DNA from: a virus
Virus record (IMG/VR): IMGVR_UViG_3300045988_171958
Coordinates: 32,001-96,000 of that record
Reading direction: 5' to 3' (one strand)
DNA: 64,000 bases
The notes beneath the pieces were generated by a model. The model had not been told where the DNA came from. It saw nothing but the letters and a program-made list of their open reading frames with translations, and did not search any database. Shown here piece by piece: positions 25,451-63,027 of this stretch; the stretch's first letter is position 1, and every line of letters begins with the position of its first letter. Made by a program: the position numbers and the translations under genes.

Positions 25451-25505
25451 GTTCTGCCATTTCTAATTGATGTTTAATAATTTAAAAAGTAAAATTAAAA
25501 GAAAA

Positions 25506-37879: not shown

Positions 37880-39334
37880 ATGAAAGTAAAGAAAAGAGAT
37901 GGTAAAGTCCAAGGCTTTGATCTTAACAAGCCAATTCATGCACTTGAAAAGGTGTATAAGAATGGAGTGAAGAAAGAAGTTCCTGATGGACTTATTAGTA
38001 AGTTTACAGAATCAATAAGAGCTTGGTTAGAAACCATGAAAGAAGATGTAGTTGATATTGAGACTGTACAAGATTTCTTGAGAGATTTCCTCATGTCAGT
38101 AGGAGAGAATGAAGCCGCAGAGCAATTCATCATTTACCGAGAAGAGAGATCTAGGTATCGAGAATCTAATACAAAGCTTGCTAAGAATATTGCTACAAAA
38201 CTTTATGCCAAGAATGTAGTTAACCAGAATGCTAATCTTGATGAAAACAGTTTTAGTGGTCGTATTGGTGAAGCTGGAGCGGTTGTTTGTAAAGATTTTG
38301 CTTTGAAAAACAGTATGTCGAAGATGGCAAGAAAGAATCATGAAGGAAACATGATTTATCAGCATGATCTTGACAAATTTGTATCGGGTATGCACAATTG
38401 TTTGACAGATCCAGTTGATATTCTTCTTGAACATGGCATTACATTGAAGCAGTGTGACATTCGTCCTGCTAATTCATTGAATACTGCATTCCAATTGATA
38501 GCTGTCAATTTCCAAGTACAATCACTTGAACAGTTTGGGGGTATTTCTGCATCACATCTTGATTGGACAATGGTACCATATTTCCGTAAGAGTTTCTTTA
38601 AGCATTACAACAATTGGTGTGATGGAATTCCATTGATGAAGTGGGCTAAACCTAACATTGATTCTAAATCTATCAAACATGTTAGTGTTGATGATAGAAT
38701 TTATACTGGTGTTGGATTGTTGAAACCATTGAAGAAAATGATATGGAAGAAAGCTTGGAATTCTACATTGAAGGAATTGAGACAAGCTACTGAAGCAATG
38801 AGTCATAATCTCAATAGCTTACAATCACGTAGTGGTGCTCAGTTGCCATTTTCTAGCATCAATTATGGTACATGTACTTTAAAGGAAGGTCGTGAAATCA
38901 TCAGAGCATTAATTAGTATGACATTGGAAGGTACTGGTAAGTATCATCGTACTGCTATATTCCCATGTTGCATATTCCAATACAGTAAGGAAATTCATGG
39001 TTCTAAAAAGAATCCTGGTCCTAACTATGATTTGTTCAGATTAGCATTGAAATCTACAACACAACGTGATTATCCTAATTATTGTAATGTTGATTGGAGT
39101 ACTAACTGGAAAGGTAATATATTTGATAGGGAGCAAAAGAATCGTGCATTGAAAGATTTGCTCAATTTCTCTAATTCAACATACTGTGCATTTGCCAAAT
39201 GGCTATCAGAACACCATGATTATGAAGATTATTTGTCATTGGAAGGTTATTATGATTGTATTGAAGATCATTGGGAAATTAAAGTAAAACCAGCAGAGAA
39301 ATTCACTAGATATGAAGTGATGAGCACGATGGGT
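37880..39334 (+). CDS. nrdD: anaerobic (class III) ribonucleotide reductase NrdD, exon 1
   Basis: N-terminal ATP-cone-like MKVKKRDGKVQGFDLNKPIHALEKV. The frame stays open for 485 codons to GGT at 39332-39334 (..EVMSTMG). The following 21 codons in the ORF track read into the intron. Confidence 0.85.
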
Positions 39335-39626
39335 AAGCGTAATACTACAGCCCATCTAAAACCTCTCGAACCATGCTTAATGGGTGTGGCAGCATAAGAA
39401 AATAAATAAGCTGCTGCTAACGGTTAGGTCCATTTATAATAGATGGATGAGATCCGTGCTAAATTGATAAATTTATTTATCATAAAGGTGTATCGACTAT
39501 CCCTGATGAGTGTAAGGGAGTAGAATCTGAGATAAGCACAGATTCGGAGCGTGAGGCCTCTGTTCATTTATGATAAATGAACTTAGGAACATATAGTCAG
39601 TCCTGTTAGTAATAACAGATAAGATG
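39335..39626 (+). other. group I self-splicing intron (292 nt, no internal ORF)
   Basis: P1 pairs exon GATGGGT (39328-39334) with intron GCCCATC (39350-39356), with a U.G wobble at the splice site. P10 pairs 3' exon TGTAG (39627-39631) with CTACA (39345-39349), immediately 5' of the guide. The intron ends in G (39626), contains several GC-rich hairpins, and splicing restores the frame. Confidence 0.8.
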
Positions 39627-40670
39627 TGTAGAACATATAATGGTTATGATATCAATTGTGATTCAAATTATTTCTTTGACATATTTAGAAAGATAGCAGA
39701 AACTGGTAAAGTACAAGACAATTGGATGTTGTCTGCAAACCAGAAAGATGGTCGTGGAAACATTTGTCCTGTTACTATCATCATGCCTACTTTAGCTATG
39801 ATGGCAAAAGAATCTGGTAGTAAAGATGTAGTAGAGACATTCATGAAGCTGCTTGATAAGAAGATTCATGAAGCAAGAGAAATGCTTCTTGAAAGATTTA
39901 CTTTGATTTGCAGTCAGAATTCTAAGTCTGCTCCATTTATGTGGACAAACAATACAATGGTAGGATATATCCCTGAAGAAGGCCCTGTATCTGCTATGAA
40001 GCATGGTACATTAGCTATCGGACAAATTGGATTAGCAGAAACATTGCAGATATTGATTGGATGTGACCAGACAGAAGCTCAAGGTCTTGAACTTGGAAAG
40101 AGAATTGAAAAGCTATTCAATGATAGATGTACAGAATTCAAGAAAAATGATAAGTTGAATTTTGGAGTATACCTGACTCCAGGAGAATCCCTTTGTAAGA
40201 CAGCAATGACAAAATTCAGAGCACAATATGGTAATGATGTTAAAGGTGTTACTGATAATGACAATAAATTCTTTACAAATTCAACTCATGTACCTGTATA
40301 CAGAGATATTGATTGTTTCAAGAAAATTGATATTGAAAGTGAATTAGATAAGTTCAGTAATGCAGGATGCATCACTTATGTTGAAATGCCAAGTTCAGCA
40401 ACTAACAATATAGATGCTTGTGAAGAATTAGTGGTTTATGCAATGGATAAGGATCTTCCGTATTTCAGTTTGCATTTCCCATTGGATTATTGTAGAGATT
40501 GCCATAGTAAAGGTGACTTCAATGGAACATGCCCACATTGTGGAAGTCATAACATAGAGGAACTAAGGATGGTCACAGGCTACCTTAGTACTGATGTTTC
40601 TAATATGAATGAAGGTAAACAAGATGAAGTTTCTAAACGATTAAAACATGTTGAACAAAATTTAATTTAA
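39627..40670 (+). CDS. nrdD: anaerobic ribonucleotide reductase NrdD, exon 2
   Basis: Begins CRTYNGYD.., so the junction reads STMG-CRTY. The C-terminal Zn-ribbon is CRDCHSKGDFNGTCPHCGS, and the glycyl-radical motif is RMVTGYL (compare RVxGY). Confidence 0.85.
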   Translation, partial: CRTYNGYDINCDSNYFFDIFRKIAETGKVQDNWMLSANQKDGRGNICPVTIIMPTLAMMAKESGSKDVVETFMKLLDKKIHEAREMLLERFTLICSQNSKSAPFMWTNNTMVGYIPEEGPVSAMKHGTLAIGQIGLAETLQILIGCDQTEAQGLELGKRIEKLFNDRCTEFKKNDKLNFGVYLTPGESLCKTAMTKFRAQYGNDVKGVTDNDNKFFTNSTHVPVYRDIDCFKKIDIESELDKFSNAGCITYVEMPSSATNNIDACEELVVYAMDKDLPYFSLHFPLDYCRDCHSKGDFNGTCPHCGSHNIEELRMVTGYLSTDVSNMNEGKQDEVSKRLKHVEQNLI

Positions 40671-45827: not shown

Positions 45828-46113
45828 CTTATATAATATTGAATCAAGATATCAGTATCATACAAGAACTGGTATTGAATGGACAAAATGGTTTTGTATG
45901 TTGTCAGAAGGTCCTAATGAGGATAAAGCTTTTCTTGAGCAGAAAATTTCAGACTATAAAGATAATGATAAGAGGATAAAAGCAAAGTTGAAGCATGAAT
46001 ATCGTATAGTTGATTATGTAGAACCAGAAGAGGTTCATGCATTTCAGAAAATGTATACTAGAAGAAAGAATAAAAACTCTAAAAAGTCACCAGGAACAAC
46101 TAAAAAGTCTTAG
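45820..46113 (+). CDS. hypothetical basic protein
   Basis: 97 aa. Its last 9 codons (KKSPGTTKKS*) are encoded by the antisense strand of GC-rich element copy D. Confidence 0.55.
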   Translation: MSNLYNIESRYQYHTRTGIEWTKWFCMLSEGPNEDKAFLEQKISDYKDNDKRIKAKLKHEYRIVDYVEPEEVHAFQKMYTRRKNKNSKKSPGTTKKS

Positions 46114-46178
46114 GCTGATAGAATATACTGAAGCATATTTTTCCGCTCCCTGACCGCCCCAGGCGCTTAACAGGAGAA
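46087..46178 (-). repeat. GC-rich structured element, copy D (minus orientation)
   Basis: The reverse complement reads TTCTCCTGTTAAGCGCCTGGGGCGGTCAGGGAGCGGAAAAATATGCTTCAGTATATTCTATCAGCCTAAGAC..GTTCCTGGTGAC followed by TTTTT. It is the closest relative of copy A. Confidence 0.7.
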
Positions 46179-46220
46179 CATTATATTATATATTAGTAAA
46201 ACTTTTAAATATGAATTTTT

Positions 46221-46502
46221 ATGAAGCAATTGAAGAAACAGAGTGGAGCTTCGCGTATCGTTGAAGTTCTTTTAGGACAAGCATTATTGAATTGTAAGAT
46301 TGGTAGCGTCAAATCTCTTATTGAGAAAGTAACTGATGTTACTGGTGGTAAGTTTGATGTAAAGAAGGTTGATGGTCCAGACAAATTAGATGTTGAACTA
46401 GCACCATGGATGATTTCATTGGAGATTGGCGATACTAAGGTAATAGTTAAGTTTAGCTTAACGGTAAATTATTTTATCAATAAGATTGAAGTGTCAGAGT
46501 GA
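46221..46502 (+). CDS. hypothetical protein
   Basis: 93-aa ORF. Confidence 0.6.
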   Translation: MKQLKKQSGASRIVEVLLGQALLNCKIGSVKSLIEKVTDVTGGKFDVKKVDGPDKLDVELAPWMISLEIGDTKVIVKFSLTVNYFINKIEVSE

Positions 46503-46527
46503 CATTTTGGCAGGAATATATGACAAT

Positions 46528-46568
46528 GTGTCAGAATTTTGTAATCATGAAATTCTGGCACACTTTTT
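46528..46568 (+). terminator. intrinsic terminator enclosing a -35-like box
   Basis: GTGTCAGAATTT / AAATTCTGGCAC (one G.U pair) followed by ACTTTTTT. Confidence 0.65.
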
Positions 46569-46576
46569 TCTATATA
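46548..46576 (+). promoter_or_regulatory. promoter of dnaK (TGAAAT-N14-TTCTATATA)
   Basis: The -35-like box lies in the hairpin loop and 3' arm. The -10 box comes right after the T-run, 42 nt before the dnaK ATG. Confidence 0.5.
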
Positions 46577-46617: not shown

Positions 46618-48573
46618 ATGAGTAAAGTTTTAGGCTTGGATCTCGGTACTGGTATGTCATGTGTAGCAGTAATTGAGGCAGGTAAACCAGTTGTGGTAGT
46701 AAATGAAGAAGGAACAAGAACAACACCATCAGTAGTACAGATTACAAAAGATGAAGTGAAGATTGGTAATGCAGCAAAGCGTGCAATGGTAACAAATCCA
46801 AAGAACACTATCAGTTTTGTAAAGCGTTTGATGGGTGCTGATTTTAATGATGAGAATGTAAAGAAGATGCAGAAGCTTGCAACTTATGATATTGTAAATA
46901 AGTCTGGTAAGCCTTATGTTAAGATCGATGACAAAGAATATTCTCCTGAACAGATTTCATCTATGATTGTTGGCAAGATGAAAAAAGTTGCACAAGACTA
47001 TGTTGGTGAAGAAATTAAAGATGCAGTAATTACGGTACCAGCTTGGTTTGGTGATGCTGCCCGTACAGCAACTAAGACAGCAGGTGAGCTTGCTGGATTG
47101 AATGTACTTCGTGTAATTAATGAGCCAACATCAGCGGCATTGGCTGCTAACTTGATGGAAGACAAGAAAGACAAGACTGTTGTAGTAGTGGATTCTGGTA
47201 CTGGTACAGTCGATGTTTCTGTTCTTGAGTTGTCTGATGGTATGGCTGAAGTACTTGCATCAAATGGTGATGTATATCTTGGAGGTAAAGATTATGATGA
47301 TGCTATTGTAAAGTGGGTAGTTGATGAATTCAAGAAGTCAGATGATGTTGATTTGGCAAAGGACAATATGGCTTATGCTCGTGTAGTAGAATCTGCAGAA
47401 AAAGCAAAGATTGAATTGTCAAGTTCAACACAGACAGAGATTAATCTCCCATATATTTCTATGAAAGATGGTGCACCATTGAATCTTGCTATGACACTTT
47501 CTCGTGCTAAGTTTGAATCTCTTGTAAAGAATTTGAATGATCGTACTGTTGAAAAGGCAAAGATTGCTGTAGAGAAGGCTGGTAAGAAATATGATGATAT
47601 TGATTGTATCTTGCTTGTAGGTGGTACAACTCGTATTCCATCATTACAAGAGGCATTGAAGAAGGAATTCAATAAGCCATTGAATCAATCTGTAAATCCA
47701 GATGAAGCAGTTGCATTGGGTGCTGCTAAGCAAGCTGATATTCTTGCTGGTAATTCTACTGGTGATTTGTTGCTTCTTGATGTTACTCCATTGTCATTGG
47801 GTATCGAAACTAAGGGAGATATGATGGCACCTATTGTTGAAGCAAATACAACAATTCCATGTCAAAAGAAGCAAGTATTCACCACATCTATTGATAACCA
47901 ACCTATGGTTGAAGTGAATGTATTGCAAGGTGAACGTAAGATTGCTTCTGGCAATAAGTCTATTGGTAGATTCAGATTGGATGGAATTCCTATGGCAAAG
48001 GCCGGTGTACCACAGATTGAAGTTTGCTTTGATATTGATGCAAATGGTATTGTTACAGTTACTGCTAAAGATCTTGGTACTAATAAAGAACAGCATATTA
48101 CAATCAGTAACAACACACTTACTGATGAGGAAATCAAAGCAATCAAGGAAGATGCTGAGAAGTTCAAGGAAGCTGATGAAAAGAAGACACAAGAAACCAA
48201 TGACATCAATGATGCAGAACGTTATATGTTCAATACAAAAGAGATGATTGCCAATGAAGACTTTGTCAAGGCTACATCAGATGAAGATAGAGCTAAAGCA
48301 CAAGAAAAACTTGATGCATTAGAATCAATTGTTGTATTGAAGGACAAAGACCATGATAAGATCATGGAAGCTAAGAAAGAGTTAGAAGAAGTTTGGAACC
48401 CTATAGTTGAGAAATTCTATGCCGATAAGCAAAAGAGTCAAGATTGTACTAATAAGACAGAGACACAGGAAGGAAATGCAAAGGAAGAGAATGCGTCAAA
48501 TCCTGACAATGATAAGAAGGAAGAAAAATCAGATGATGTAAAAGTAGAAGATGCAGTAGTTGAAGATGCATAA
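46618..48573 (+). CDS. dnaK: Hsp70 chaperone DnaK
   Basis: Full-length 651 aa. Motifs include LGLDLGTGMSCVAV, ..AVITVPAWFGDAAR..AGLNVLRVINEPTSAALA.., LLVGGTTRIPS.. and DEAVALGAA, plus a substrate-binding domain and an acidic C-terminal tail. Confidence 0.95.
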   Translation: MSKVLGLDLGTGMSCVAVIEAGKPVVVVNEEGTRTTPSVVQITKDEVKIGNAAKRAMVTNPKNTISFVKRLMGADFNDENVKKMQKLATYDIVNKSGKPYVKIDDKEYSPEQISSMIVGKMKKVAQDYVGEEIKDAVITVPAWFGDAARTATKTAGELAGLNVLRVINEPTSAALAANLMEDKKDKTVVVVDSGTGTVDVSVLELSDGMAEVLASNGDVYLGGKDYDDAIVKWVVDEFKKSDDVDLAKDNMAYARVVESAEKAKIELSSSTQTEINLPYISMKDGAPLNLAMTLSRAKFESLVKNLNDRTVEKAKIAVEKAGKKYDDIDCILLVGGTTRIPSLQEALKKEFNKPLNQSVNPDEAVALGAAKQADILAGNSTGDLLLLDVTPLSLGIETKGDMMAPIVEANTTIPCQKKQVFTTSIDNQPMVEVNVLQGERKIASGNKSIGRFRLDGIPMAKAGVPQIEVCFDIDANGIVTVTAKDLGTNKEQHITISNNTLTDEEIKAIKEDAEKFKEADEKKTQETNDINDAERYMFNTKEMIANEDFVKATSDEDRAKAQEKLDALESIVVLKDKDHDKIMEAKKELEEVWNPIVEKFYADKQKSQDCTNKTETQEGNAKEENASNPDNDKKEEKSDDVKVEDAVVEDA

Positions 48574-48598
48574 ATAATTTACATCAATAACAGTTTGA

Positions 48599-48637
48599 AT
48601 GGTCGATTGAATGAATGAAATTTGATCGACCATTTTC
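48599..48637 (+). terminator. hairpin after dnaK enclosing the -35 box of the dnaJ promoter
   Basis: ATGGTCGAT (48599-48607) / ATCGACCAT (48625-48633) followed by TTTT. Confidence 0.6.
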
Positions 48638-48643
48638 TATATT
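48616..48643 (+). promoter_or_regulatory. promoter of dnaJ (TGAAAT-N13-TTCTATATT)
   Basis: Consensus boxes, followed by TAACATGTC. Confidence 0.55.
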
Positions 48644-48673
48644 TAACATGTCAAAGAATAGATAACAAATAAC

Positions 48674-49705
48674 ATGAAAGATTACTATGATATTTTAGGT
48701 GTATCTAGAGATGCATCAGAAGATGATATTAAAAGAGCATATAAGAAAATAATGCTCAAATATCATCCAGATAGAATGGGTAACAAATCTGATAAGGAAA
48801 AGAAAGAAGCTGAAGAGATTGTAAAATCAGCTAATGAAGCTTATGAGACTTTATCAGATCCACAAAAGAAGCAAGAATATGACAATCCAGGTTTTGGTGG
48901 AGGATTTGATCCATTTGCTGATTTCTTTGGTCATGATAGGTCAAATGGGACATCTTGGCATACTGAAGATTATCGAGATTTGAGAGGTAAGAATTGTGAA
49001 GGAAAATTGAATATTGATATTTCTGATTTCTATTTTAAAGGTATCAAGTCAGTAGCATATTTGAAGGATTTCAGATGTAATGTTTGTGATGGTGAAGGTG
49101 GTACTGGTGTTAAAGTTTGTTCACACTGTAATGGTACTGGTATGGTAACTGAATCTAGACGGCAAGGAAACATGTTCTTCCAATCTAGCCATCCATGCCC
49201 TTATTGTAATGGTAAAGGCAAGACAGTAGAACATAAGTGTGCGGCTTGTTCTGGTACTGGTTTTATTGGTAAGTTGGTAAATGAAGAAATTGACTTGTCA
49301 AGAATTCCATTGGAATATCTTTTGAAAGATGGTATTAGAATTGATGTTGGTCCACTTGGTTCTGAATCTAAATCTGTAAATGGAACAAATGGAGAACTCT
49401 ATATTACTGTACAACATACTTATGACCATAATAAATATCATATTGATGATTATGGTAATGTAGAAGGTAAAGAAGATATTGATTGGAAGGATGTAATGCT
49501 TGGTGGTAAGATTGAAATCAATTTACCTGGTAATAAGAAGATGAGAATAAATCTTCCAGAATGTTCTGAAGTAGGTAAGAAACTTAGAATAAAAGGAAAA
49601 GGTATTGATGGGCATGATTATACAATGGTTGTCAACCCAGTATTCCCTAAAACACTTGATAAAGAAACAAAGAAAGCAATTGAACATTTAAAAGAGAAAG
49701 GATAG
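48674..49705 (+). CDS. dnaJ: type I J-domain co-chaperone DnaJ
   Basis: J domain DYYDILGVSRDASEDDIKRAYKKIMLKYHPDR, a short G/F stretch and four CxxCxGxG zinc-finger repeats (CNVCDGEG, CSHCNGTG, CPYCNGKG, CAACSGTG). Confidence 0.9.
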   Translation: MKDYYDILGVSRDASEDDIKRAYKKIMLKYHPDRMGNKSDKEKKEAEEIVKSANEAYETLSDPQKKQEYDNPGFGGGFDPFADFFGHDRSNGTSWHTEDYRDLRGKNCEGKLNIDISDFYFKGIKSVAYLKDFRCNVCDGEGGTGVKVCSHCNGTGMVTESRRQGNMFFQSSHPCPYCNGKGKTVEHKCAACSGTGFIGKLVNEEIDLSRIPLEYLLKDGIRIDVGPLGSESKSVNGTNGELYITVQHTYDHNKYHIDDYGNVEGKEDIDWKDVMLGGKIEINLPGNKKMRINLPECSEVGKKLRIKGKGIDGHDYTMVVNPVFPKTLDKETKKAIEHLKEKG

Positions 49706-49709
49706 AATA

Positions 49710-50669
49710 ATGGAAGATAGTAAGGTTTTATATTATATAAACAAAGGTATAGAAAGATTACAAGAGAATTGTAGATTTCCACCAGAATCTATTATAGATA
49801 ATGATAGATTTTTATCTGCTTATGCTTTTACAAATAATGATTATAGAATATTCCAACGCTGGATAACAGTAATCATGGAAGTAAAAGCAATAGATACAAG
49901 TAAGTCATTCTTCATACCATGTATTCTCCGTAAAGTACCAGAACGAATATTTAATGAAAGAGTAAATGATATTTGCTATGGCGCATCTACTCAATATACA
50001 TTGAATGATTCATATATAGAAGATTTAGAGATTGTATTGAATGAAAAGTATTATAAGATACTAGCAGAAAACAATTTCATGAAGGCAGTATATTGTGAAA
50101 ATGGAGAACTGAAAATGAGACAAAGTTATTCATTTGATACAAATATGTCTGTAGCTGCTATGAAGCTGTATCCAAGAAAATGCAATTTAGCTTTCTATCC
50201 ATATTCATTCAGTATGTTTGCATATACATCAGATCGAAATTCATGGAATACTGAGTTGATGAATATTATCGGAGACAGGAGTTTTGAAAGTATAACAAAA
50301 TTATCTAAACAATATTTTACTATCAATGATGTAAGTCTTGGAACATTCATTTCTAAATTGTCTCTTAATGAAGGATATTCTAATGGAAGATCTGGAATTG
50401 GATATGAGAATACTATTATGAAATGTGTATGTAATTCTCTTTCATTAGTATTTTATGATAAGACAACATTATCAGATGAGGAAATAGAGAAAGCTGCTAT
50501 TACTATAAATGAAAATGATCCTAACTTCAATAAAGCATATACTATTGATTGTCAAGGTAAGAAATTTAAAGAAGTGGATGAATTCTTTGATAATCAAGAA
50601 AAAATAGAAAAGAAAAATAAAGAAAATAAACCAAATATTATCATAACAAATGATGAATTTTTGATTTAA
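49710..50669 (+). CDS. hypothetical protein, 4 nt downstream of dnaJ
   Basis: 319-aa ORF with no GrpE-like or other motif recognised. Confidence 0.7.
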   Translation: MEDSKVLYYINKGIERLQENCRFPPESIIDNDRFLSAYAFTNNDYRIFQRWITVIMEVKAIDTSKSFFIPCILRKVPERIFNERVNDICYGASTQYTLNDSYIEDLEIVLNEKYYKILAENNFMKAVYCENGELKMRQSYSFDTNMSVAAMKLYPRKCNLAFYPYSFSMFAYTSDRNSWNTELMNIIGDRSFESITKLSKQYFTINDVSLGTFISKLSLNEGYSNGRSGIGYENTIMKCVCNSLSLVFYDKTTLSDEEIEKAAITINENDPNFNKAYTIDCQGKKFKEVDEFFDNQEKIEKKNKENKPNIIITNDEFLI

Positions 50670-50682
50670 ATTTTTCTATATT
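50658..50682 (+). promoter_or_regulatory. promoter-like element upstream of the tRNA-like gene
   Basis: TTCTATATT at 50674-50682 is followed by ATTAATGTT. The -35 region is degenerate (TGAATT / TTTGATTT). Confidence 0.45.
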
Positions 50683-50706
50683 ATTAATGTTAAAACAATT
50701 AAACTT

Positions 50707-50775
50707 GGGCCATTACGGATTTGACAATCGATACTAAACTTCGGTTGGACGTGAGTTCGAATCTCACATGGTCCA
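50707..50775 (+). tRNA. non-canonical tRNA-like gene (short D region, 9-nt anticodon loop; identity unresolved)
   Basis: Acceptor stem GGGCCAT / ATGGTCC has 7 bp with one G.U pair. The T arm is canonical: GTGAG-TTCGAAT-CTCAC. The central stem ATCGA/TCGGT closes the loop TACTAAACT. Only 69 nt before the discriminator, and no encoded CCA. Confidence 0.55.
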
Positions 50776-50794
50776 CTAAACTTGAAAGAAGACT

Positions 50795-51688
50795 ATGGAA
50801 ATTTTAGACAAGAAATTTAGTAAGTACAAAGTATTTTTTGCAGAGAAAGGTATTACATCTACTTCTGCTAATCATGTTTCTAATAAAGGTAAAGAGTTGT
50901 TGAAGTCAGAACAGGCAATTCTTGACAATATCAATTTTGTCAATACTACTGCTTCATTGCTTTCTGGTGGTGAATCTAGAACTATTACCAAAGGTATGAG
51001 TGCAGATTCTTTTGAATCTATGCATAAGACTATTGCAAAGATTGCAAATCTGAATGCTATGAGTGCATGGATTCATGAAGCAATCAAAGCAAAGACAGAG
51101 ATTCTTGAGTATGTTCAGTCACTTAGTATTGACAACTGGGCTAAAGAACAGAATATTGAACTTCCAAATGCCGCATGTAAGGAATTTCCAATTACTGAAT
51201 CTGATGTAATTGGTACATGGGATGTTGCTAAAAGAAATAAGTATTATGTATATGAATCTTATTGTTCTCTTGTTGGTAAGTTCATTCATCCTAAAGGAGC
51301 ATTTTATGAAGCTAAAGCACAGATGAATAATGCTGTACAGAATCCAAACAAGGTAGAAGGTTCTGGTCGTGATGCAATCATTTATTCTTATGAACCGTCT
51401 ATGCCAATATCTGATGTAAATGTAGAATATAATTGGTTGTCTACTGAACTCCGACATAAAGAAGCAGAATTCAATAAGATGAAGCAAGAAATTGTAGATG
51501 CTATTACAGAAGATAAGCTTGCTAAGGCACAGAAGTTCAATGATGCATATGCAAAATATATTGATACAATGGAAAGTATCAGAAATAAGTTTGACATGTG
51601 GAAAACTAAGGCTGTAAAGGAAGTTAGTGCATTGAAGATTTATCTTCCACAAGGACCTAAGCAGACTTATGATGAAATCAACAAATAA
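50795..51688 (+). CDS. hypothetical protein
   Basis: 297-aa ORF. The long antisense ORF 51119-51718 is Ile/Phe/Cys-rich and low-complexity. Confidence 0.75.
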   Translation: MEILDKKFSKYKVFFAEKGITSTSANHVSNKGKELLKSEQAILDNINFVNTTASLLSGGESRTITKGMSADSFESMHKTIAKIANLNAMSAWIHEAIKAKTEILEYVQSLSIDNWAKEQNIELPNAACKEFPITESDVIGTWDVAKRNKYYVYESYCSLVGKFIHPKGAFYEAKAQMNNAVQNPNKVEGSGRDAIIYSYEPSMPISDVNVEYNWLSTELRHKEAEFNKMKQEIVDAITEDKLAKAQKFNDAYAKYIDTMESIRNKFDMWKTKAVKEVSALKIYLPQGPKQTYDEINK

Positions 51689-55149: not shown

Positions 55150-58100
55150 TTATTGATTATAATAAGATTTACCATAACAATATAAGTTAACTGTATGACT
55201 AGTAGAAGCATCAGTACCAATATGTATATTCTTTGGAATCTTATCAATAGGACATACAAATGTATATTCATAAGATGAAGTACCAAGTGTAGAAGCATCA
55301 GTACCTTGTACTGCAGTTAATGTATGTTTGGTTGCATTTAATGTATAATTATAAGTTTTGGTCCAATCCTTTGTTGATGTACCAGAAGTAGCAGTAACTT
55401 TATAATCAGAAATAGAAGCTGTAGTATCATAGGTTTGTGGATCAAATGCAGTTATTGTCTTATCATCACTACATGTTAAAGTACCAGTAAAATCAACTGT
55501 TGCTCCATAATTTTTAAGGGTAAATGTACAACTAGCAGTTGATCCTCCATAAGAGATAGTACATGTAACATCAGTAGTATTACCGTCAGTTGCATTTTTA
55601 CCAGCAGATACTGTAACTTTATTTGTACTTGTTGTACTATTACCATAATCCCAATTATATGTTACACCTGGATCATCAATTACAATAAAATCACCAAAAT
55701 TAACACCATCAGTTGAAGTGGCCATTTCACAAACAATATGTACACTTAAATCAAATGTTGAAGCATTTGTATCAAAGTATGTATGTTCAATAGTTTGTGT
55801 TGTATTTGTTTCATTAACATTTGTACCACAATAAACATAAAGATTATATATAGCAGTCATAGATGTTACTTCAAATGTCCACTCATAATCTTTTAATTCA
55901 TATTTTTTATTTATTTCATGGTTTTCTATTGTAGTAGATATATCTACACTATCTAATTTAAACGTTCTAATACCAATTACATCAGGAGTGGTTGTAACTT
56001 CTATTGTTTTAGTAGTTTTATCATACTTTTTACCATCACATAACCAATTGTATTTTATTATTGCATTTGAAGGTAAATTTTCAATAAAAGAAGGCCCTAT
56101 AAATACTTTAGTATTATTCTGTACTGGTTTACCATTTTTCTTGCTTAATTTAATTATTGCTGAAAAAGGACTAACAACCTTTATTCCGGTACGATCTTCA
56201 GTAGCACCTATTGTACATTTTATAGGTTTACTTATACTAGTAACACTTTTACATTTATCATAATTTGTACTATCAGTTTTAAAATTATCTTCATGGACAT
56301 TAATAGTTGTATTCTCATACTTTTTAATTCTAGTAAACTTTGTGATATATGCTGATTGTATTTTTGCTCCTTCAGAAGATATAGATTTATCAATAACTAG
56401 GTTTGCACAATTAAATGTTTTGGTTATTTCAAATTCTGCTGATTGTGTACCTTTACCATTCGGTGTTCCTTGTTGCACTACAGGTGCACTAGCAGTATTT
56501 TTATTGTAAGTGTATTCTAATTTTATAGTTCCTAATGGTCTTTCTTTAATACCTGTACTTACTCCTCCTGTTACTGTATAGAATTCTAATTTCTTAGAAT
56601 AATTAGTAGTATCATTAGACTTATCATCTATTTCTTTTAATAATTTAACCAATTTATTACCAGTCCAATTATTCACACCAGGTGTTATAATTGAACCAGA
56701 TTCACCTTCATTCTTATCATAAATTAAATGACAAATTTTGCTCTTTATAGTTTTAGAATCTAGATATACTTTTGTTTCATCAATTCCTTCAGAAGGTTCA
56801 AAAGACCAACTATAATAATTATCAACATCAAGTTTTCCAGCTGGTATTTTAAAATATGTATAAGTTAAAGATGTTGAAGGTTTTGTCAAGTCCGGAGTTG
56901 AAACTTTAGGATCAAATCTAGTAGATGCAGCATTGGTATAAGGGGTATCTTCAATGGGAATATTCCATTTTGTATCAACATTAATCTTAAAGAATGTGTC
57001 CTTTCCTGGTTCATACTTAGGTTCATCCGAAGCTGATATTGGTTCATTACCTCCAGAAGCACTTACCATTATCTTATCATCTATAGTATTTAATGTTATA
57101 TTATCCCATGTTAAAACACCATTATCTAAAGTAACTTTTCCTATAAGAATACCTGTTTTAATAGATGTATTACCCGATTTACAATCATTTATATCTATAA
57201 GTTCATCATATAAATTTAATGTACCATTTCCATTATCTATAATACTATTAAGTTTCTCTGATGTAAATTTTATAGTACCTGGCAAAGTTTTAGGATATAA
57301 AGGAGTTTTGTTACTTAATTTAGCAGGTATCATCGTAATAAATACATTATAATCATTTACTAAAGAAAGATCATCCACGGTATTTAAATATGTTTGCCCA
57401 TAATGTTTAAGAGTAAATGTACAAGTTGAATGATATGTTTCTTTATAAGTTGCTGTACATGTAACTATTTTATCTTTAGAATTATTATACCCTTTACCTG
57501 GTTCTAAATCAACTTTTGTATTATTTCCATTTGCTTCTGTTATAATATTGCCATTATCTTTCCATGAATATGTTACTTTAGGGTCATCAATTTCTATCCA
57601 ATTATTATAATCACTACCATTTTCTGTTGTTCTATACCAACATCTAACATATACATTTAAATTAAATGTTGATGCATTTTCAGCCCAATATAAGTGCTCA
57701 ATTGTTTCTGCTTGTGTTTGTGTTTTGGTAGAATATATAACAACACTATATTGATAACCAGTACCCGTAGTAACTACAAATTTCCATTCATATCCTAACT
57801 GGTATCTTGTAATGAATGTTTGTCCTGAAATTTCTGGATATGTAGAATTATTTTCATATTCATCTGTAACAGTACATTCATCTAATGCAAATGTTCTAGT
57901 ACCTGTTGTTGAAGGTGTAGTTGTAACTTCTATTGTGTTAGTGGTTTCACCATAAGATTCACCATCTAATTTCCAAATATATTTAATTGTTCGTTTTTTA
58001 GGTTTAACCATTTTATTACTTGCTGGACCAACAACAGTCTTACTACTATTAGAAGATATTCCATTCATCTTTAATCTATCAATTATGGCAGAAGGAATAG

Positions 58101-61100
58101 CAACTACAGTAATATTATTTTCTGTATTTTCTGTACAACCTATTGTACATTTGATAGGTTTATCTATTGTGGTAGTACTACTACATTTATCATAATTTTC
58201 ACCGTATTTTGTAAATGTTCCTTCTTTTATATTTAAAGAAGCTTTATTCCATTTTACTCCAGCAGTAGTAAACTTTGTGATATATGCTATATCTTCATTA
58301 TTTCCGGTTGCTGATATTGATGTATCTACTAAACAACTACAATTTATTTGATTTGATACTTTAAATGTTGCTGAATTAGTCTGTTCACCTGCAGTTTTAC
58401 CATTTTGAGTGACCTTAGTAGTAGCACTAGTACCAGTCTTTGTATAATCTAATTTTAAAGTACCTAATGGTCTACTATCTTGAGCTCCAGTTACACCTCC
58501 AATAACTTTATAAAATCCTACTTTATCTTTATTTTCTTTTATTTCTTTTGTTAAAATGTAAGAATCCTTTGTCCATATCCACTCATTAAATTCATCAGTA
58601 ATATTTTCTCCTCTTGGTTTAGGATTATTAGGATAATTTATTTTTACAGTTCTCTTAGTGTTATTACTTAATGTTACTCCAGTTACTCCTTTATCAGGAG
58701 TAAATGACCATTTATAATAATCATTAACATCTAATTTTTCTCCTGGTACCTCAACATCAAATGTAGATTGTCCATTAAATGTAGGATCAGAAGTATCTGT
58801 ATATGGACTATCAACATCAGGAACATTCCATGAAGTTGAAACAGATATAGTAAATTTACCATCTGAACCTGCAGTATAATTTGGACTATTTGTTGGTGTA
58901 ACATCATGTGTACCTTCTTCTGCTCCAACAGTTACATTATCCAATTTGATAGTTGTCCATGTTAATGATGCAGAATCTTGTGTATATGTACCTATATCTA
59001 ATGTAGTAGATTTAAAATCTTTATTACCAGAGACACTTAATGAACCTGATCCACTTTTTTTTCTACTACTAAATGTTAATATTGCTGGAAGGCTATCAGG
59101 ATATTCTGTTGAAGTACTACTACGTTTTGTCGGAGTTGATCCTACATACACATGTCCATCAGATAAAAATGGAGTGGCTAAATAACCTCCATAATCTTGT
59201 CCAAATCTATATAAGTTAAATTCTACAGTACCAGAATATCCTTCTGCTGAACTTACTGTAACAGAAATAATTTTACCTAAGCCTAGGTTATCCATACTAG
59301 TTCCTGGAGTTACAGATGAAACATTAACTGTTGCTGTGTTATTTTTATTACTATCTGTTCCTACCCAAGTATATTTAACACCAGTAATACTTGTACTATC
59401 ATTTTTCCAATCATCAGTACCTACCTTTGATTGTAATTGATAACCAGCAACTTTTAATTCCCATTTAGTTGAATCCCAATATATTTTTTTACTTGTATAA
59501 GCTTCTAAAGTAATCTTAATTCTAAATTGCTTCTGTTGGGATGTTATTGTAATTGTACTACTATTTAATTCATTATATTTATTATCACCATTAAACCATG
59601 CAACATAAATAACATAAGTTCCTGGTTTTGTTATATGTACAGTACTTTCTCCAGTAGTATCTAATGATTGCCAATTTTTAGTATCAGTACCTTCAACAAC
59701 TGCCATTTTAGCAGTATATGTAGTATCAACTAATGGGCCTACAGAACCAGATGATGATTTAGTTGTTGTTTGGGTATCGCCAATCCATCCATCTGGACTT
59801 TCTGGATGTATACTAAAACCATACATATAATTCCATGTCTTCTTACCAGTATGTTTGTAATTTACTGTTAAAGCAGATATTGATTTTACTCCTAAATATG
59901 TACTTACAGGAACATTATATTTAAATTCTTGACTTGAACCTTCAAATGTTGCAGTAGGTACAGTAGTTGGAAAATTACCTTCTGATAACTTATCGGAATA
60001 ATTATATATGTATGTACTTATATTCTCACTTGACCCAGTATCACCTGATGGGTTAGGATCTGGTGATGTTATATTAGATACAGTAAATGCGCCATAATCA
60101 ATAGATTCATTATAACTTTTATCGGCAGGACCCACTGGTTTAGATGTGGTACAATTTACTCCAGATGTTACAAAAGTATAAGCTATTTCATCATGCCAAC
60201 CTTCTTGCCCATTTTGTGGTACTGTTATTGAATTTCCTTCGTATGTTATACTACTATTATTAATATCTACTACTCTTATCTTAATAGTATGGTTTATTGG
60301 ATCTGCTGTTTTATAATATCCTGATGTATATTTGTATATTCCTTCATTTACATCAGTCCATTCATCAGAAGATTTCAAATCAAGAGAACAATCTCTATCC
60401 CATGTTGCATCATTGCTTTGTATATATTTAGTAGTAGAATCTGACCAACTTCCTGTATCTACTTTATATTGATATTTATAATTAGCAGGGTTGGGTTGTA
60501 CAGATCCGCTAAGTACAATACCATTGGCAGGGTTTGCAGGTTTAGAACTAATTATATTGCTACTTACAGATATTGAATAATCTTGCTTCTTACTAGTTGC
60601 AGATTCTGTTTCTACAGTACCTGATGATTTAGATATAATAATAGTTGCACCATACCAAGGAATAGTAGTATAATTTACACCAGGAGTAAGGTTTTTTTGT
60701 CCTGTAACATACAATTGTTTAGCTGATTTGAGACTATAATTGGCACTTGTACTCTTACCATCAACAGGGTATTTGGTGCTCCCATCACAACTATTTATAC
60801 CTTCACCAGTTCCTTTTATAGTAATAGTACCAGATATGTTAGTACCATTTTGAGATATAGTTATAGTAGATGGGCTTGGTGTCAGTACACCATCTTGATA
60901 AGTAGATCCTGAAAATGATATAGTGCCAGATGTTGCTGATGAATTTTTAGTAGTAGATGTAAATGTAAGTGTACCATCACTAGCAGAGGCATACCAATTA
61001 CCTATTATTGGCGGATTAGAAGCCAATGTTGCAGTAAAACTATCATCAGTATTGTCATTATTCCATGTTTTGCTTGCCTTAGAAAATGTCAAATCTTGAG

Positions 61101-63027
61101 TACCAGTATCTTTCCAGGATAATGTGGCATTTCCAAATGCATGATTAGCAGCACCTATAGCAGGAAGTTTGATATCTACACTTTTAAATTCTTTTAATGT
61201 CCAATATTCTTGATTTGTCGGAGTATTTGCGGTATTGGATATTGTCCAAGTACGTTCAGAAACACCTGAAGTAAAACCTTGTCTGAATGTAATATCTGGA
61301 TGTAACTTTATTGTAACATCACCTCCTTTATAAGATACTGCATCATTAGATCCTTTAGTTATAGTTACTTTACCACCACTATAAGTATTTACCCAAGGCC
61401 TGCTTATTGTTGGCATTATAACAGAAACAGATTTTGATGATGCGTTGTAATTCCATCCAGTTGTCTTTTCTGTACCATCTGAAGTTGATATTCCCCCTAT
61501 ACTAACAGTAGGCCAACCATGGCCATATCCATCATTATAAGTTGTAGTTGTCTTACTTCCTTGTGTGACTTTCCATTTCATATTGAATGATGGATTATTC
61601 CAATGCATTCCATGCTGTGTTAAAGTCAATGCTTGATATGGTTGACCTTTGATATCTTTAGGTGTAATGTTTTGTGCACAGCAATTGGTGACAGTCATAT
61701 TCTGTCTAAGTGTACAAGAACGAGCTGATCTATTAGTAGGAGGTGTCCAAGATACACCGGTAACAGAACCAGTAGTAGAACCACCGTTAGAAATAGAAGT
61801 ATTATTTAATGATAATGAAAGAGTACCACCAACACTTGGTTTGTCATCCCCTTGGTCATCAAATGTTACCTTTGTTGTATTTCCGGAGGTTGTAGAAAGA
61901 TGTGCCCAAGATGGATTGCTATCTATAGACCAAGCATAAGATATTCCTAACTTAGAACCTGGTTGCCATATTCTGAATGTATAAGCGTTAGTACCTGTAG
62001 GCATAGTAGAGCTTTTATTTATCATCAAACTGTATGTTACATCAACATATCTCTTATAAGAAGAGAAACCATCATCATTAGCAGTAGAAGTTGTGAATCT
62101 GTCATATTTACCATCATACCATGCTTTTGCTTCTACATTTACACTACCACCATCATAAGAAACAGAATTGTAATTATCATCATATTCGAAAACTAATCTC
62201 TTAGGATAAGTAGGCAGAGTATTGTATGTAAATGAAAGATAGTTAGTATTGTTCCAAGTAGCTGAATTCTTATATGGGTTATAAGTATAAGAATGATTTA
62301 TTCTGTATTCTGATTTATTGTTTGTTAATGTACAGAAAGTAGGAGAACTAGACTTTGCATCATCATGATTTGATATAGAAATATAGAGTTCTCCATAAGG
62401 ATCTGCTATATTATAGAAAGTTTGGAAAGCATCATATTTTTCTGTTACAACACGGCCACCAGTTGCTTTAGTCTTACCATCACTTTTATAGTTGTCATTT
62501 GTACCGTAATTATAGCTAGTTAAATCATATTTTATGCTTGGTTCATATTGTATTTTGTGTCTACGGTAACCTGCAGTAAAAGTTGTACCTTTTACAGATA
62601 AGTTAGTTCTAGATATGACGTTGTTGTTGGAATTACTGTAAGGACTTACACCATGCTTAGTATCATCTAATCCTGTTGGTTCAACAAATCTGGAATCTGT
62701 TTTGCTTCCAAATGGATAGAAATTGAAATCTCCATATACAGATCCAATCGTATTCTTATTAGCTGTTGCCCAATTGAAATAAGCAACATAATCATTACCA
62801 GTCTTTACTTCCCTATTAGGGCTAGTCATGTGATTAGTAGTATAGAAATAACAAGTAGTATTATTTCCTGTAAATTCTGCACCATTAGGATGAGGAATAG
62901 GTTGGGATACATTACCAGAATTTGCTAATTCTACAATAACCCAATCAGAATCATCAAAAGAATGTCCTCTTGTATTGTAATTGTAATTTCCACTATTTGA
63001 AGTAAAATAATTTCCGTAATCTGCCAT
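55150..63027 (-). CDS. giant (2625-aa) Ser/Thr/Asn-rich repetitive virion surface protein (tail-fibre / adhesin-like)
   Basis: Single uninterrupted ORF with beta-rich composition (T, S, N, G, Y, W) and no recognisable enzymatic motif. It contains two long tandem modules and lies in the structural strand block. Confidence 0.8.
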   Translation of the reverse strand: MADYGNYFTSNSGNYNYNTRGHSFDDSDWVIVELANSGNVSQPIPHPNGAEFTGNNTTCYFYTTNHMTSPNREVKTGNDYVAYFNWATANKNTIGSVYGDFNFYPFGSKTDSRFVEPTGLDDTKHGVSPYSNSNNNVISRTNLSVKGTTFTAGYRRHKIQYEPSIKYDLTSYNYGTNDNYKSDGKTKATGGRVVTEKYDAFQTFYNIADPYGELYISISNHDDAKSSSPTFCTLTNNKSEYRINHSYTYNPYKNSATWNNTNYLSFTYNTLPTYPKRLVFEYDDNYNSVSYDGGSVNVEAKAWYDGKYDRFTTSTANDDGFSSYKRYVDVTYSLMINKSSTMPTGTNAYTFRIWQPGSKLGISYAWSIDSNPSWAHLSTTSGNTTKVTFDDQGDDKPSVGGTLSLSLNNTSISNGGSTTGSVTGVSWTPPTNRSARSCTLRQNMTVTNCCAQNITPKDIKGQPYQALTLTQHGMHWNNPSFNMKWKVTQGSKTTTTYNDGYGHGWPTVSIGGISTSDGTEKTTGWNYNASSKSVSVIMPTISRPWVNTYSGGKVTITKGSNDAVSYKGGDVTIKLHPDITFRQGFTSGVSERTWTISNTANTPTNQEYWTLKEFKSVDIKLPAIGAANHAFGNATLSWKDTGTQDLTFSKASKTWNNDNTDDSFTATLASNPPIIGNWYASASDGTLTFTSTTKNSSATSGTISFSGSTYQDGVLTPSPSTITISQNGTNISGTITIKGTGEGINSCDGSTKYPVDGKSTSANYSLKSAKQLYVTGQKNLTPGVNYTTIPWYGATIIISKSSGTVETESATSKKQDYSISVSSNIISSKPANPANGIVLSGSVQPNPANYKYQYKVDTGSWSDSTTKYIQSNDATWDRDCSLDLKSSDEWTDVNEGIYKYTSGYYKTADPINHTIKIRVVDINNSSITYEGNSITVPQNGQEGWHDEIAYTFVTSGVNCTTSKPVGPADKSYNESIDYGAFTVSNITSPDPNPSGDTGSSENISTYIYNYSDKLSEGNFPTTVPTATFEGSSQEFKYNVPVSTYLGVKSISALTVNYKHTGKKTWNYMYGFSIHPESPDGWIGDTQTTTKSSSGSVGPLVDTTYTAKMAVVEGTDTKNWQSLDTTGESTVHITKPGTYVIYVAWFNGDNKYNELNSSTITITSQQKQFRIKITLEAYTSKKIYWDSTKWELKVAGYQLQSKVGTDDWKNDSTSITGVKYTWVGTDSNKNNTATVNVSSVTPGTSMDNLGLGKIISVTVSSAEGYSGTVEFNLYRFGQDYGGYLATPFLSDGHVYVGSTPTKRSSTSTEYPDSLPAILTFSSRKKSGSGSLSVSGNKDFKSTTLDIGTYTQDSASLTWTTIKLDNVTVGAEEGTHDVTPTNSPNYTAGSDGKFTISVSTSWNVPDVDSPYTDTSDPTFNGQSTFDVEVPGEKLDVNDYYKWSFTPDKGVTGVTLSNNTKRTVKINYPNNPKPRGENITDEFNEWIWTKDSYILTKEIKENKDKVGFYKVIGGVTGAQDSRPLGTLKLDYTKTGTSATTKVTQNGKTAGEQTNSATFKVSNQINCSCLVDTSISATGNNEDIAYITKFTTAGVKWNKASLNIKEGTFTKYGENYDKCSSTTTIDKPIKCTIGCTENTENNITVVAIPSAIIDRLKMNGISSNSSKTVVGPASNKMVKPKKRTIKYIWKLDGESYGETTNTIEVTTTPSTTGTRTFALDECTVTDEYENNSTYPEISGQTFITRYQLGYEWKFVVTTGTGYQYSVVIYSTKTQTQAETIEHLYWAENASTFNLNVYVRCWYRTTENGSDYNNWIEIDDPKVTYSWKDNGNIITEANGNNTKVDLEPGKGYNNSKDKIVTCTATYKETYHSTCTFTLKHYGQTYLNTVDDLSLVNDYNVFITMIPAKLSNKTPLYPKTLPGTIKFTSEKLNSIIDNGNGTLNLYDELIDINDCKSGNTSIKTGILIGKVTLDNGVLTWDNITLNTIDDKIMVSASGGNEPISASDEPKYEPGKDTFFKINVDTKWNIPIEDTPYTNAASTRFDPKVSTPDLTKPSTSLTYTYFKIPAGKLDVDNYYSWSFEPSEGIDETKVYLDSKTIKSKICHLIYDKNEGESGSIITPGVNNWTGNKLVKLLKEIDDKSNDTTNYSKKLEFYTVTGGVSTGIKERPLGTIKLEYTYNKNTASAPVVQQGTPNGKGTQSAEFEITKTFNCANLVIDKSISSEGAKIQSAYITKFTRIKKYENTTINVHEDNFKTDSTNYDKCKSVTSISKPIKCTIGATEDRTGIKVVSPFSAIIKLSKKNGKPVQNNTKVFIGPSFIENLPSNAIIKYNWLCDGKKYDKTTKTIEVTTTPDVIGIRTFKLDSVDISTTIENHEINKKYELKDYEWTFEVTSMTAIYNLYVYCGTNVNETNTTQTIEHTYFDTNASTFDLSVHIVCEMATSTDGVNFGDFIVIDDPGVTYNWDYGNSTTSTNKVTVSAGKNATDGNTTDVTCTISYGGSTASCTFTLKNYGATVDFTGTLTCSDDKTITAFDPQTYDTTASISDYKVTATSGTSTKDWTKTYNYTLNATKHTLTAVQGTDASTLGTSSYEYTFVCPIDKIPKNIHIGTDASTSHTVNLYCYGKSYYNQ
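55500..59230 (-). repeat. tandem duplication of a ~600-630-aa module inside the giant gene (diverged, protein-level)
   Basis: Matching landmarks about 1.8-1.9 kb apart: KLDVNDYYKWSFTPDKG (~58700-58740) and KLDVDNYYSWSFEPSEG (~56800-56840); CTFTLKHYGQTY (~57386-57424) and CTFTLKNYGATV (~55490-55530); IDKPIKCTIGCTEN and ISKPIKCTIGATED. A partial third copy of the module end is VEFNLYRFGQDYGG at ~59186-59227. Confidence 0.75.

Follow-up and report, generated by a model that had tools for sequence, protein, structure and literature searches.

Why would a phage encode its own Hsp70 and J-protein, and does it do so without GrpE, the third member of the E. coli DnaK-DnaJ-GrpE system? This question is raised by the adjacent dnaK and dnaJ genes of IMG/VR virus record IMGVR_UViG_3300045988_171958, of which positions 32,001 to 96,000 were analysed (64,000 nucleotides (nt), hereafter the window). 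Other viral chaperone solutions include lambda P with host DnaK/DnaJ/GrpE, T4 gp31 and phage EL GroEL, the mimivirus Hsp70 and the closterovirus Hsp70h. An earlier reading of the window from its letters (the original prediction) had proposed a full-length Hsp70 and a type I (class A) DnaJ at this locus; both open reading frames (ORFs) are present where it had placed them, and Pfam matches bear out both assignments. We conclude that the two genes very probably form a functional, anciently phage-borne Hsp70/class A DnaJ pair.

The predicted DnaK matches Pfam HSP70 over profile positions 1-598 of 599 (E=4.9e-204) and passes the cut-off of NCBIfam model NF001413 (742 bits, cut-off 648). Its score against the stricter TIGR02350 lies under the cut-off (723 bits, cut-off 822.55), and by this measure it is a divergent family member. 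Residues were surveyed in an alignment of 114 DnaK family members and are given in E. coli numbering. The catalytic residues D8, K70, E171, D194, G196, T199 and D201, the allosteric and J-domain-contact residues P143, D148, R151, R167 and T173, the linker L391-L392-D393 and the substrate pocket residues F426, Q433 and V436 are each invariant in 112-114 of the 114 members. Inactivating substitutions, which the original prediction had considered possible, were not seen in the catalytic residues of the window DnaK.

DnaJ likewise matches the Pfam families expected of a class A J-protein: DnaJ (the J domain; 79 bits, cut-off 27.8), DnaJ_CXXCXGXG (48.8 bits, cut-off 32.7) and DnaJ_C (39.7 bits, cut-off 26.6, covering profile positions 42-133 of 152). 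Its features were read in alignment with the proteins of E. coli and of Lak-A1, one of the Lak megaphages (Prevotella phage Lak-A/B/C). The HPD motif lies at aa 32-34, with the basic helix II residues retained, and the zinc-finger region contains the four motifs CNVCDGEG, CSHCNGTG, CPYCNGKG and CAACSGTG. The glycine/phenylalanine-rich (G/F) stretch comprises 16 residues (NPGFGGGFDPFADFFG), and the whole linker is ~34 residues long versus ~46 in E. coli. The 5-residue insertion that follows HPD in the J domain is common to the window DnaJ, Lak and 97 of the 120 best DnaJ matches.

Both genes are under strong purifying selection. Among close relatives with unsaturated synonymous divergence (dS 0.10-0.23), the ratio of nonsynonymous to synonymous substitution rates (dN/dS) is 0.042-0.056 for dnaK and 0.058-0.068 for dnaJ. 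The two ORFs downstream, referred to here as n319 and n297 after their protein lengths, have values of 0.13-0.17, above those of dnaK and dnaJ.

More than 8,000 database sequences matched DnaK, and the best 120 range from 98% down to 61% identity, all from metagenome sources except one NCBI record. Genes 98% identical to the window dnaK are present on many metagenomic contigs, and the order dnaK-dnaJ-n319-n297 is kept on independent IMG/VR, ENA and Logan contigs. Two matches, 61% and 72% identical, were sampled for their surroundings, and both are on phage contigs: one is beside T4 gp2- and gp13-like genes and DUF7487, and the other shows the dnaK-dnaJ...297-aa synteny. The cellular DnaKs sampled (Pseudomonadota, Bacillota, Actinomycetota, Planctomycetota and DPANN archaea) are 42-51% identical, well short of the near-identity to a host operon against which the original prediction had cautioned. 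All DnaKs that tblastn retrieved from PLSDB came from Pseudomonadota, Bacillota or Actinomycetota, at 45-51% identity, and a scan of GTDB genomes with overly specific patterns yielded nothing beyond mis-binned phage contigs and a few remote cellular DnaKs.

A neighbour-joining tree (584 columns, 100 bootstraps, with cellular sampling from outside the Bacteroidota) places the DnaKs of the window, its family and Lak-A1 in one clade with 100% bootstrap support, on a long stem. This clade joins other huge-phage DnaKs (LR756501, LR756502, LR756504 and IMG/VR contigs) at 97%, apart from the sampled cellular DnaKs. The derived changes T12G and Y145W and the loss of G197 are common to the window DnaK and Lak. 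As read from the alignment and tree, the ancestry of the pair is phage, with long inheritance among very large phages, in a clade to which the Lak megaphages belong. The huge-phage DnaK clade might be nested within Bacteroidota, which would date the origin of the gene and not make it recent. The genome of the window lineage is probably ~290 kb, since the largest contigs of this lineage and of the closer sub-lineages cluster at 282-301 kb.

Several further observations were made on the locus in relatives. In two contigs (L005 and L007; IMGVR_UViG_3300045988_172955 and _174340) the locus is mosaic, with DnaK 77%, DnaJ 94%, n319 92% and n297 91% identical to the window (46618-51688). The contrast between DnaK at 77% and its close neighbours at 91-94% suggests that the dnaK allele was replaced by recombination between sub-lineages. 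The dnaK gene is interrupted at one same site in L006 (7899-11371), L008, L009, Lak-C1 (L017, 10001-13440) and the Lak-B genomes. This site is inside the phosphate-2 loop codons (…VVVVDSG / (T)GTVDVS…, the slash marking the interruption); the window dnaK is uninterrupted. The insertion is ~1.5 kb long and contains a 378-aa ORF with weak PD-(D/E)xK similarity (TnsA-like N, E=0.003; phage endonuclease I, E=0.004). It is more likely an intron with a homing endonuclease than an intein, because the two exon frames differ; an Rfam search of the L006 insertion matched no intron model. In the more distant contig L020 (DnaK 72% identical by BLASTP, 70% by MAFFT), a 337-aa ORF at 9132-10145 follows and overlaps dnaJ. 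Its HExxH motif (LIHELTHAYEDF) suggests a metalloprotease beside the chaperone pair, and the protein is not homologous to the window n319 (22% identity). Contigs of the phage are also deposited in GTDB-representative metagenome-assembled genomes (MAGs) labelled "uncultured Romboutsia sp." (L008, L009 and L013; CALFLM010000034.1, CALESE010000188.1 and CALESE010000210.1). This label is probably a mis-binning of low-GC phage DNA. A 24-residue segment of the window DnaK is missing from the DnaKs of Bacillota, Actinomycetota and archaea, and dnaK is not a Romboutsia gene because Bacillota DnaKs are without this segment.

GrpE was not detected in the window by Pfam searches of all 72 other ORFs, by tblastn with five GrpEs, or by an unfiltered hidden Markov model of 57 GrpE sequences applied to the ORFs in all six frames of both the window and the loci around dnaK in its relatives. 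The n319 and n297 proteins were considered as cryptic GrpEs and rejected, as hhalign against the 57-sequence GrpE profile gave probabilities of 0.3% and 5.4%, respectively. The original prediction of a pair without recognisable GrpE thus stands for the window and the flanks of its relatives, but does not extend to the clade: a clear GrpE (Pfam E ~1e-41) is present, unlinked and 10-130 kb from dnaK, in all 15 Lak genomes and in LR756502 and LR756504. Bacteroidales GrpE is among the sequences nearest to the Lak GrpE (40-53%).

These genomes offer a precedent for a complete DnaK-DnaJ-GrpE triad whose grpE gene lies outside the 64-kb window, an alternative that we judge unlikely. Besides the precedent, it is favoured by the partial view of the genome (64 kb) and by the retention in DnaK of what we take to be a signature of GrpE dependence. 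Opposing it are two motif scans of IMG/VR, which found 52-54 GrpE-bearing viral contigs, none of them among the seven contigs of the window lineage (three of 244-283 kb); the contig sizes given above suggest that the 283-kb contig is nearly a whole genome. The combined scan patterns match 40 of 40 Lak-like GrpEs (100%) and 71 of 80 (89%) other close GrpEs. In addition, none of the 120 best homologues of Lak GrpE lies on a contig equal in size to any lineage dnaK contig. The absence of GrpE is a property of the window and probably also of the ~290-kb lineage.

Slow-exchange, GrpE-dependent DnaKs are reportedly marked, in work by Brehmer et al. from 2001, by K55/R56-E264/E267 salt bridges, an L257/V59 patch and a G32 loop. 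The window DnaK keeps these elements (K55, R56, E264, E267, V59 and G32), with M in place of L257. Across the family K55, R56, E264 and E267 are invariant or nearly so, V59 is conserved, G32 is kept and position 257 is M or L. Because these residues are conserved and no phage GrpE is detectable, DnaK might use host GrpE for nucleotide exchange; this is the simplest reading of the data, and we give it roughly even chances.

The original prediction had also placed a hairpin and a phage promoter before each gene, and both are confirmed: the hairpins are of 16 bp, and the promoter-like motif is repeated at least 13 times in the window. The motif is bipartite, TTTGAAAT-N13/14-TTCTATAT(T/A), with a (T)TGAAAT box ~13 nt upstream of a TTCTATAT box, and was found by inspection and regular-expression search. 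All copies are intergenic, on the + strand and within 15.7-52 kb, and for most of them the next ATG is 27-50 nt further on. The full motif precedes the gene for a gp32-like single-stranded DNA-binding protein (SSB) and most small + strand genes, nrdG has the downstream box only, and no - strand gene in the window carries the bipartite motif. A generic sigma-70 consensus scan of the window gave 34 sites versus 36.3 expected in shuffled sequence, which argues that the motif is phage-specific. At both genes the hairpins and motifs are conserved in relatives, with pairing preserved through base changes. The dnaK hairpin is kept in L001 and L004 and has an altered form in L005, and the more distant L020 has a different downstream box (ACTATTTTATATAAAG). 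The sequence TGGCAYAC-N-TTGC upstream of dnaK could be taken for a sigma-54-like element, but this reading was rejected because its "TTGC" belongs to the downstream promoter box, which each lineage has in its own form.

The window is phage DNA, and the + strand block that shares this motif encodes the gp32-like SSB, a split NrdD with NrdG, a thymidylate kinase, a DHH phosphoesterase and an endolysin-like protein. The location of dnaK and dnaJ in this non-structural block does not favour a purely late role in virion assembly, though it is compatible with one. The original prediction had put forward the fibre, the capsid and the replisome as candidate clients. Provision of folding capacity in general, or a role linked to replication, may fit somewhat better than a role dedicated to assembly of its fibre-like protein, a 2,625-aa ORF at 55150-63027 on the - strand.

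The same location invites the alternative of a specialised role in place of bulk folding, such as remodelling at replication initiation (as with lambda P), manipulation of the host heat-shock response (as with the J-protein Rki of RB43) or the countering of chaperone-dependent defence sensors. In addition to lying in a replication and nucleotide-metabolism block and using its promoter motif, the pair has diverged in the substrate-arch residues and C-terminal tail of DnaK, and both counter-defence and recruitment of host DnaK have been raised as possible roles of phage J-proteins (PMC12619734; PMC7824862). However, the apparently full class A client-binding architecture of DnaJ and the canonical DnaK pocket (F426, V436 and Q433) fit a general chaperone, and no defence or anti-defence gene was identified beside the dnaK-dnaJ module. 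We find a specialised role improbable as a replacement for general folding, with which it would in any case be compatible.

A functional pair is not free of difficulty, and the points that weigh against it are gathered here. The activity of phage Hsp70s is expected by homology to the canonical cycle, and co-expression with the replication and metabolism class, as opposed to exclusively late expression, may be read from the shared motif only. The phosphate loops of the window DnaK are DLGTGMS and DSGTGTVD versus the canonical DLGTTNS and DLGGGTFD (T12G, N13M, L195S, G197T and F200V); the original prediction, which had credited the protein with all ATPase signatures, was correct for the catalytic residues and slightly overstated for these loops. 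The substrate arch carries M404K and A429S, and R467A and D481N are further arch and lid differences from canonical DnaK. Most of the sampled bacterial DnaKs carry the bacterial C-terminal motif (D/E)A(E/D)[FY]EEV, as do Lak and the majority of the LR and IMG/VR huge-phage DnaKs, but the whole 61-98% family is without it and has variable acidic tails instead. The non-canonical terminus that had been noted for the window (…DDVKVEDAVVEDA) is thus a trait of the whole family. Because loops, arch, lid and C-terminal motif deviate, the kinetics, allostery or client range of this DnaK may differ from those of canonical DnaK. DnaJ ends ~30 residues before the E. coli DnaJ C-terminus and scores 203 bits against TIGR02349 (cut-off 377), and on this score it is a divergent class A J-protein. 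With respect to GrpE, one of the two IMG/VR scans missed Lak's own GrpE, and Lak grpE sits 130 kb from dnaK, a distance to be set beside the 64 kb shown by the window. A divergent or unlinked GrpE elsewhere in the genome, beyond the visible 64 kb, therefore keeps a modest share of the probability.

The altered phosphate loops and lost C-terminal motif could also mark decaying or catalytically dead relics, but this is highly improbable given dN/dS values of 0.04-0.07, catalytic residues invariant across 114 homologues and intact reading frames, and the loop variants appear to be selected because they are family-wide. T12G is found in 93 of the 112 residues at its column, and position G197 is variable; such loop variants resemble the DSGDG loop of actin. 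An origin as host DNA (assembly chimera, binning contamination or very recent passenger) is effectively refuted: a GC fraction of 0.36 for dnaK-dnaJ versus 0.29-0.33 in the flanks and the near-identical contigs in Romboutsia-labelled MAGs would suit it, but the low identity of sampled cellular DnaKs, the segment missing in Bacillota, the recurrence of synteny and phage promoter motifs on many independent contigs and the long stem common to the window DnaK and Lak do not.

A functional phage-borne pair would be predicted to operate as follows. With its zinc-finger and C-terminal domains, phage DnaJ would bind non-native polypeptides of the phage (or the host) and deliver them to phage DnaK, and its HPD-bearing J domain would stimulate ATP hydrolysis through HPD and R167. 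The client would be trapped in the DnaK substrate-binding domain and released after ADP/ATP exchange catalysed by host GrpE, the supply of which may suffice because GrpE acts catalytically. Both genes would be expressed with those for replication and metabolism, as suggested by the copy of the non-structural + strand block motif before each. The outcome would be extra folding capacity for the proteome of a ~290-kb phage, independent of the host heat-shock regulon. More speculatively, the ~290-kb gut jumbo-phage sub-clade could run a two-component Hsp70 system without its own exchange factor, either dependent on host GrpE or independent of any exchange factor through its remodelled loops. We think this rather unlikely; if true, the second option would constitute a new kinetic class of DnaK-type Hsp70.

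Deposited phage records that match DnaK number 39 of 50,697, and ~21 remain after removal of obvious host-DNA records: 15 Lak and six LR7 huge phages, all of 484-735 kb. The original prediction that such a pair is uncommon for phages is accurate for these records, but the pair is recurrent among huge uncultivated phages. At least 576 contig stretches in IMG/VR encode DnaK relatives, many on contigs of 100-670 kb, and many GrpE-bearing IMG/VR viral contigs carry dnaK and dnaJ nearby. Both genes are present in 15 of 15 Lak genomes and are adjacent in those examined. PHROGs contains full-length DnaK-like and DnaJ-like families, labelled "unknown function". Lak genomes have been described as typically encoding several molecular chaperones (10.1101/356790), Moraphages carry both DnaK and DnaJ (PMC12619734), and a survey of jumbo phages reported DnaJ-domain proteins only, predicted to recruit host Hsp70 (PMC7824862). 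The phage Hsp70 pair is already recognised as a kind, though uncharacterised, and the window pair is a new and divergent case of it.

The Lak megaphages are similar to the window phage in DnaK clade, derived substitutions, J-domain insertion and gut metagenome origin, and their dnaJ starts 220-350 nt after dnaK. They differ in that the window proteins are only 57% (DnaK) and 35% (DnaJ) identical to theirs, other window proteins tested have no Lak match, and the Lak genomes are ~540 kb versus probably ~290 kb for the window lineage. Lak also retains the bacterial C-terminal YEEV motif, absent from the window family, and has a Bacteroidales-like GrpE, not found in the window lineage. The huge phages of Al-Shayeb et al. 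(LR756501/02/04/08 and LR745206) and large IMG/VR contigs also encode a full-length DnaK-type Hsp70 and a class A DnaJ, but their DnaKs are 45-51% identical to that of the window and have canonical phosphate loops and a YEEVK tail, and their grpE often adjoins dnaJ. Moraphages are likewise large phages with DnaK and DnaJ, with predicted Bacteroidota hosts and a role described as poorly understood; their DnaKs are reported as recent transfers nested in Flavobacteriaceae (PMC12619734), whereas the window DnaK is on a long phage-specific stem. Compared with the E. coli system, the window pair (46% identical for DnaK, 30% for DnaJ) shares the domain architecture, the catalytic, allosteric and linker residues, HPD, the zinc fingers and the residues that we take to mark GrpE dependence. 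It differs from E. coli in its altered phosphate loops, arch and lid latch, the lost C-terminal motif, the shorter G/F stretch, the truncated DnaJ C-terminus and the absence of a detected GrpE gene. Finally, in contrast to phage J-proteins that recruit host DnaK (RB43 Rki and the DnaJ domains of jumbo phages, PMC7824862), the window phage encodes the Hsp70 ATPase and an apparently complete class A J-protein itself.

Coordinates of the dnaK-dnaJ module and of the associated regulatory features in the window (nt, nucleotides; aa, amino acids)
Feature	Position	Strand	Description
dnaK (651 aa)	46618-48573	+	Pfam HSP70 aa 4-601 (nt 46627-48420); linker LLLLD aa 384-388; acidic non-canonical tail aa 602-651 (nt 48421-48570)
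dnaJ (343 aa)	48674-49705	+	J domain aa 3-70 (nt 48680-48883), HPD then 5-residue insertion; G/F aa 71-~105; zinc-finger region aa 135-196 (nt 49076-49261); C-terminal domain aa 217-312 (nt 49322-49609)
n319 (319-aa ORF)	49710-50669	+	Begins 5 nt past dnaJ; without own promoter motif; fast-evolving
n297 (297-aa ORF)	50795-51688	+	Accompanies the dnaK-dnaJ module in relatives; 41-47% identity in distant relatives L020 and L004
Hairpin upstream of dnaK	46527-46562	+	16 bp, then T-run; 3' arm overlaps upstream promoter box; from terminator-like scan
dnaK promoter-like motif	46547-46575	+	ATGAAAT box 46547-46553; TTCTATAT box 46568-46575; 50 nt to ATG
Hairpin between dnaK and dnaJ	48597-48635	+	16 bp; base changes in relatives preserve pairing
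dnaJ promoter-like motif	48615-48642	+	ATGAAAT box 48615-48621; TTCTATAT box 48635-48642; 39 nt to ATG
Motif sites	15691, 25036, 27217, 29797, 31033, 33219, 41535, 41591, 44532, 46568, 48635, 50674, 52046	+	

The n319 ORF is probably co-transcribed with dnaJ, given its start position and its lack of a promoter motif. Neither n319 nor n297 has a Pfam or PHROG match, and a family profile of n297 found no sequence relative in PDB. Single-sequence AlphaFold2 models of the two proteins had mean confidence values (predicted local distance difference test) of 34 and 45, respectively, too low for use. Between these ORFs, just past a promoter-like motif, is a tRNA-like element at 50707-50775 (+) that scores 28.5 bits against the Rfam tRNA model (gathering score 29; E=3e-4); ARAGORN calls no tRNA anywhere in the window.

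Elsewhere in the window, ORFs also match baseplate and tail families, and two RimK-like ATP-grasp proteins and an OmpA-domain protein (25470-26636) are encoded. The standard genetic code gives 90% coding density; an alternative code with TAG recoded, as in Lak, was rejected because recoding adds no coding density. The nrdD gene is split into ORFs at 37880-39397 and 39624-40670, and the group I intron model of Rfam matches the gap (39368-39619, +) over its full length at 30.6 bits (E=4.4e-6), under the gathering score of 50. This arrangement recalls the intron of T4 nrdD (sunY). Upstream of the 93-aa ORF that precedes dnaK, an unusually GC-rich intergenic stretch (46113-46221; …TTCCGCTCCCTGACCGCCCCAGGCGCTTAACAGGAG…) matches no Rfam family at gathering threshold. 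No close deposited relative of the window was found with the proteins queried: the sole match to the gp32-like protein is in a Chryseobacterium jumbo phage (26%), and there is none to a 603-aa protein of the - strand.

Phage Hsp70 systems are visible in the genomes of huge phages, and none has been characterised so far. In the lineage described here the pair proves to be old, under strong selection and diversified across a clade of gut jumbo phages and megaphages, in at least two configurations: with a phage GrpE, as in Lak, and apparently without one, as in the window lineage. Mechanistic work on Hsp70 could draw on its naturally occurring variation in the phosphate loops, substrate arch and C-terminal tail. 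As to phage biology, the pair suggests that very large genomes go together with a degree of independence from the proteostasis network of the host.

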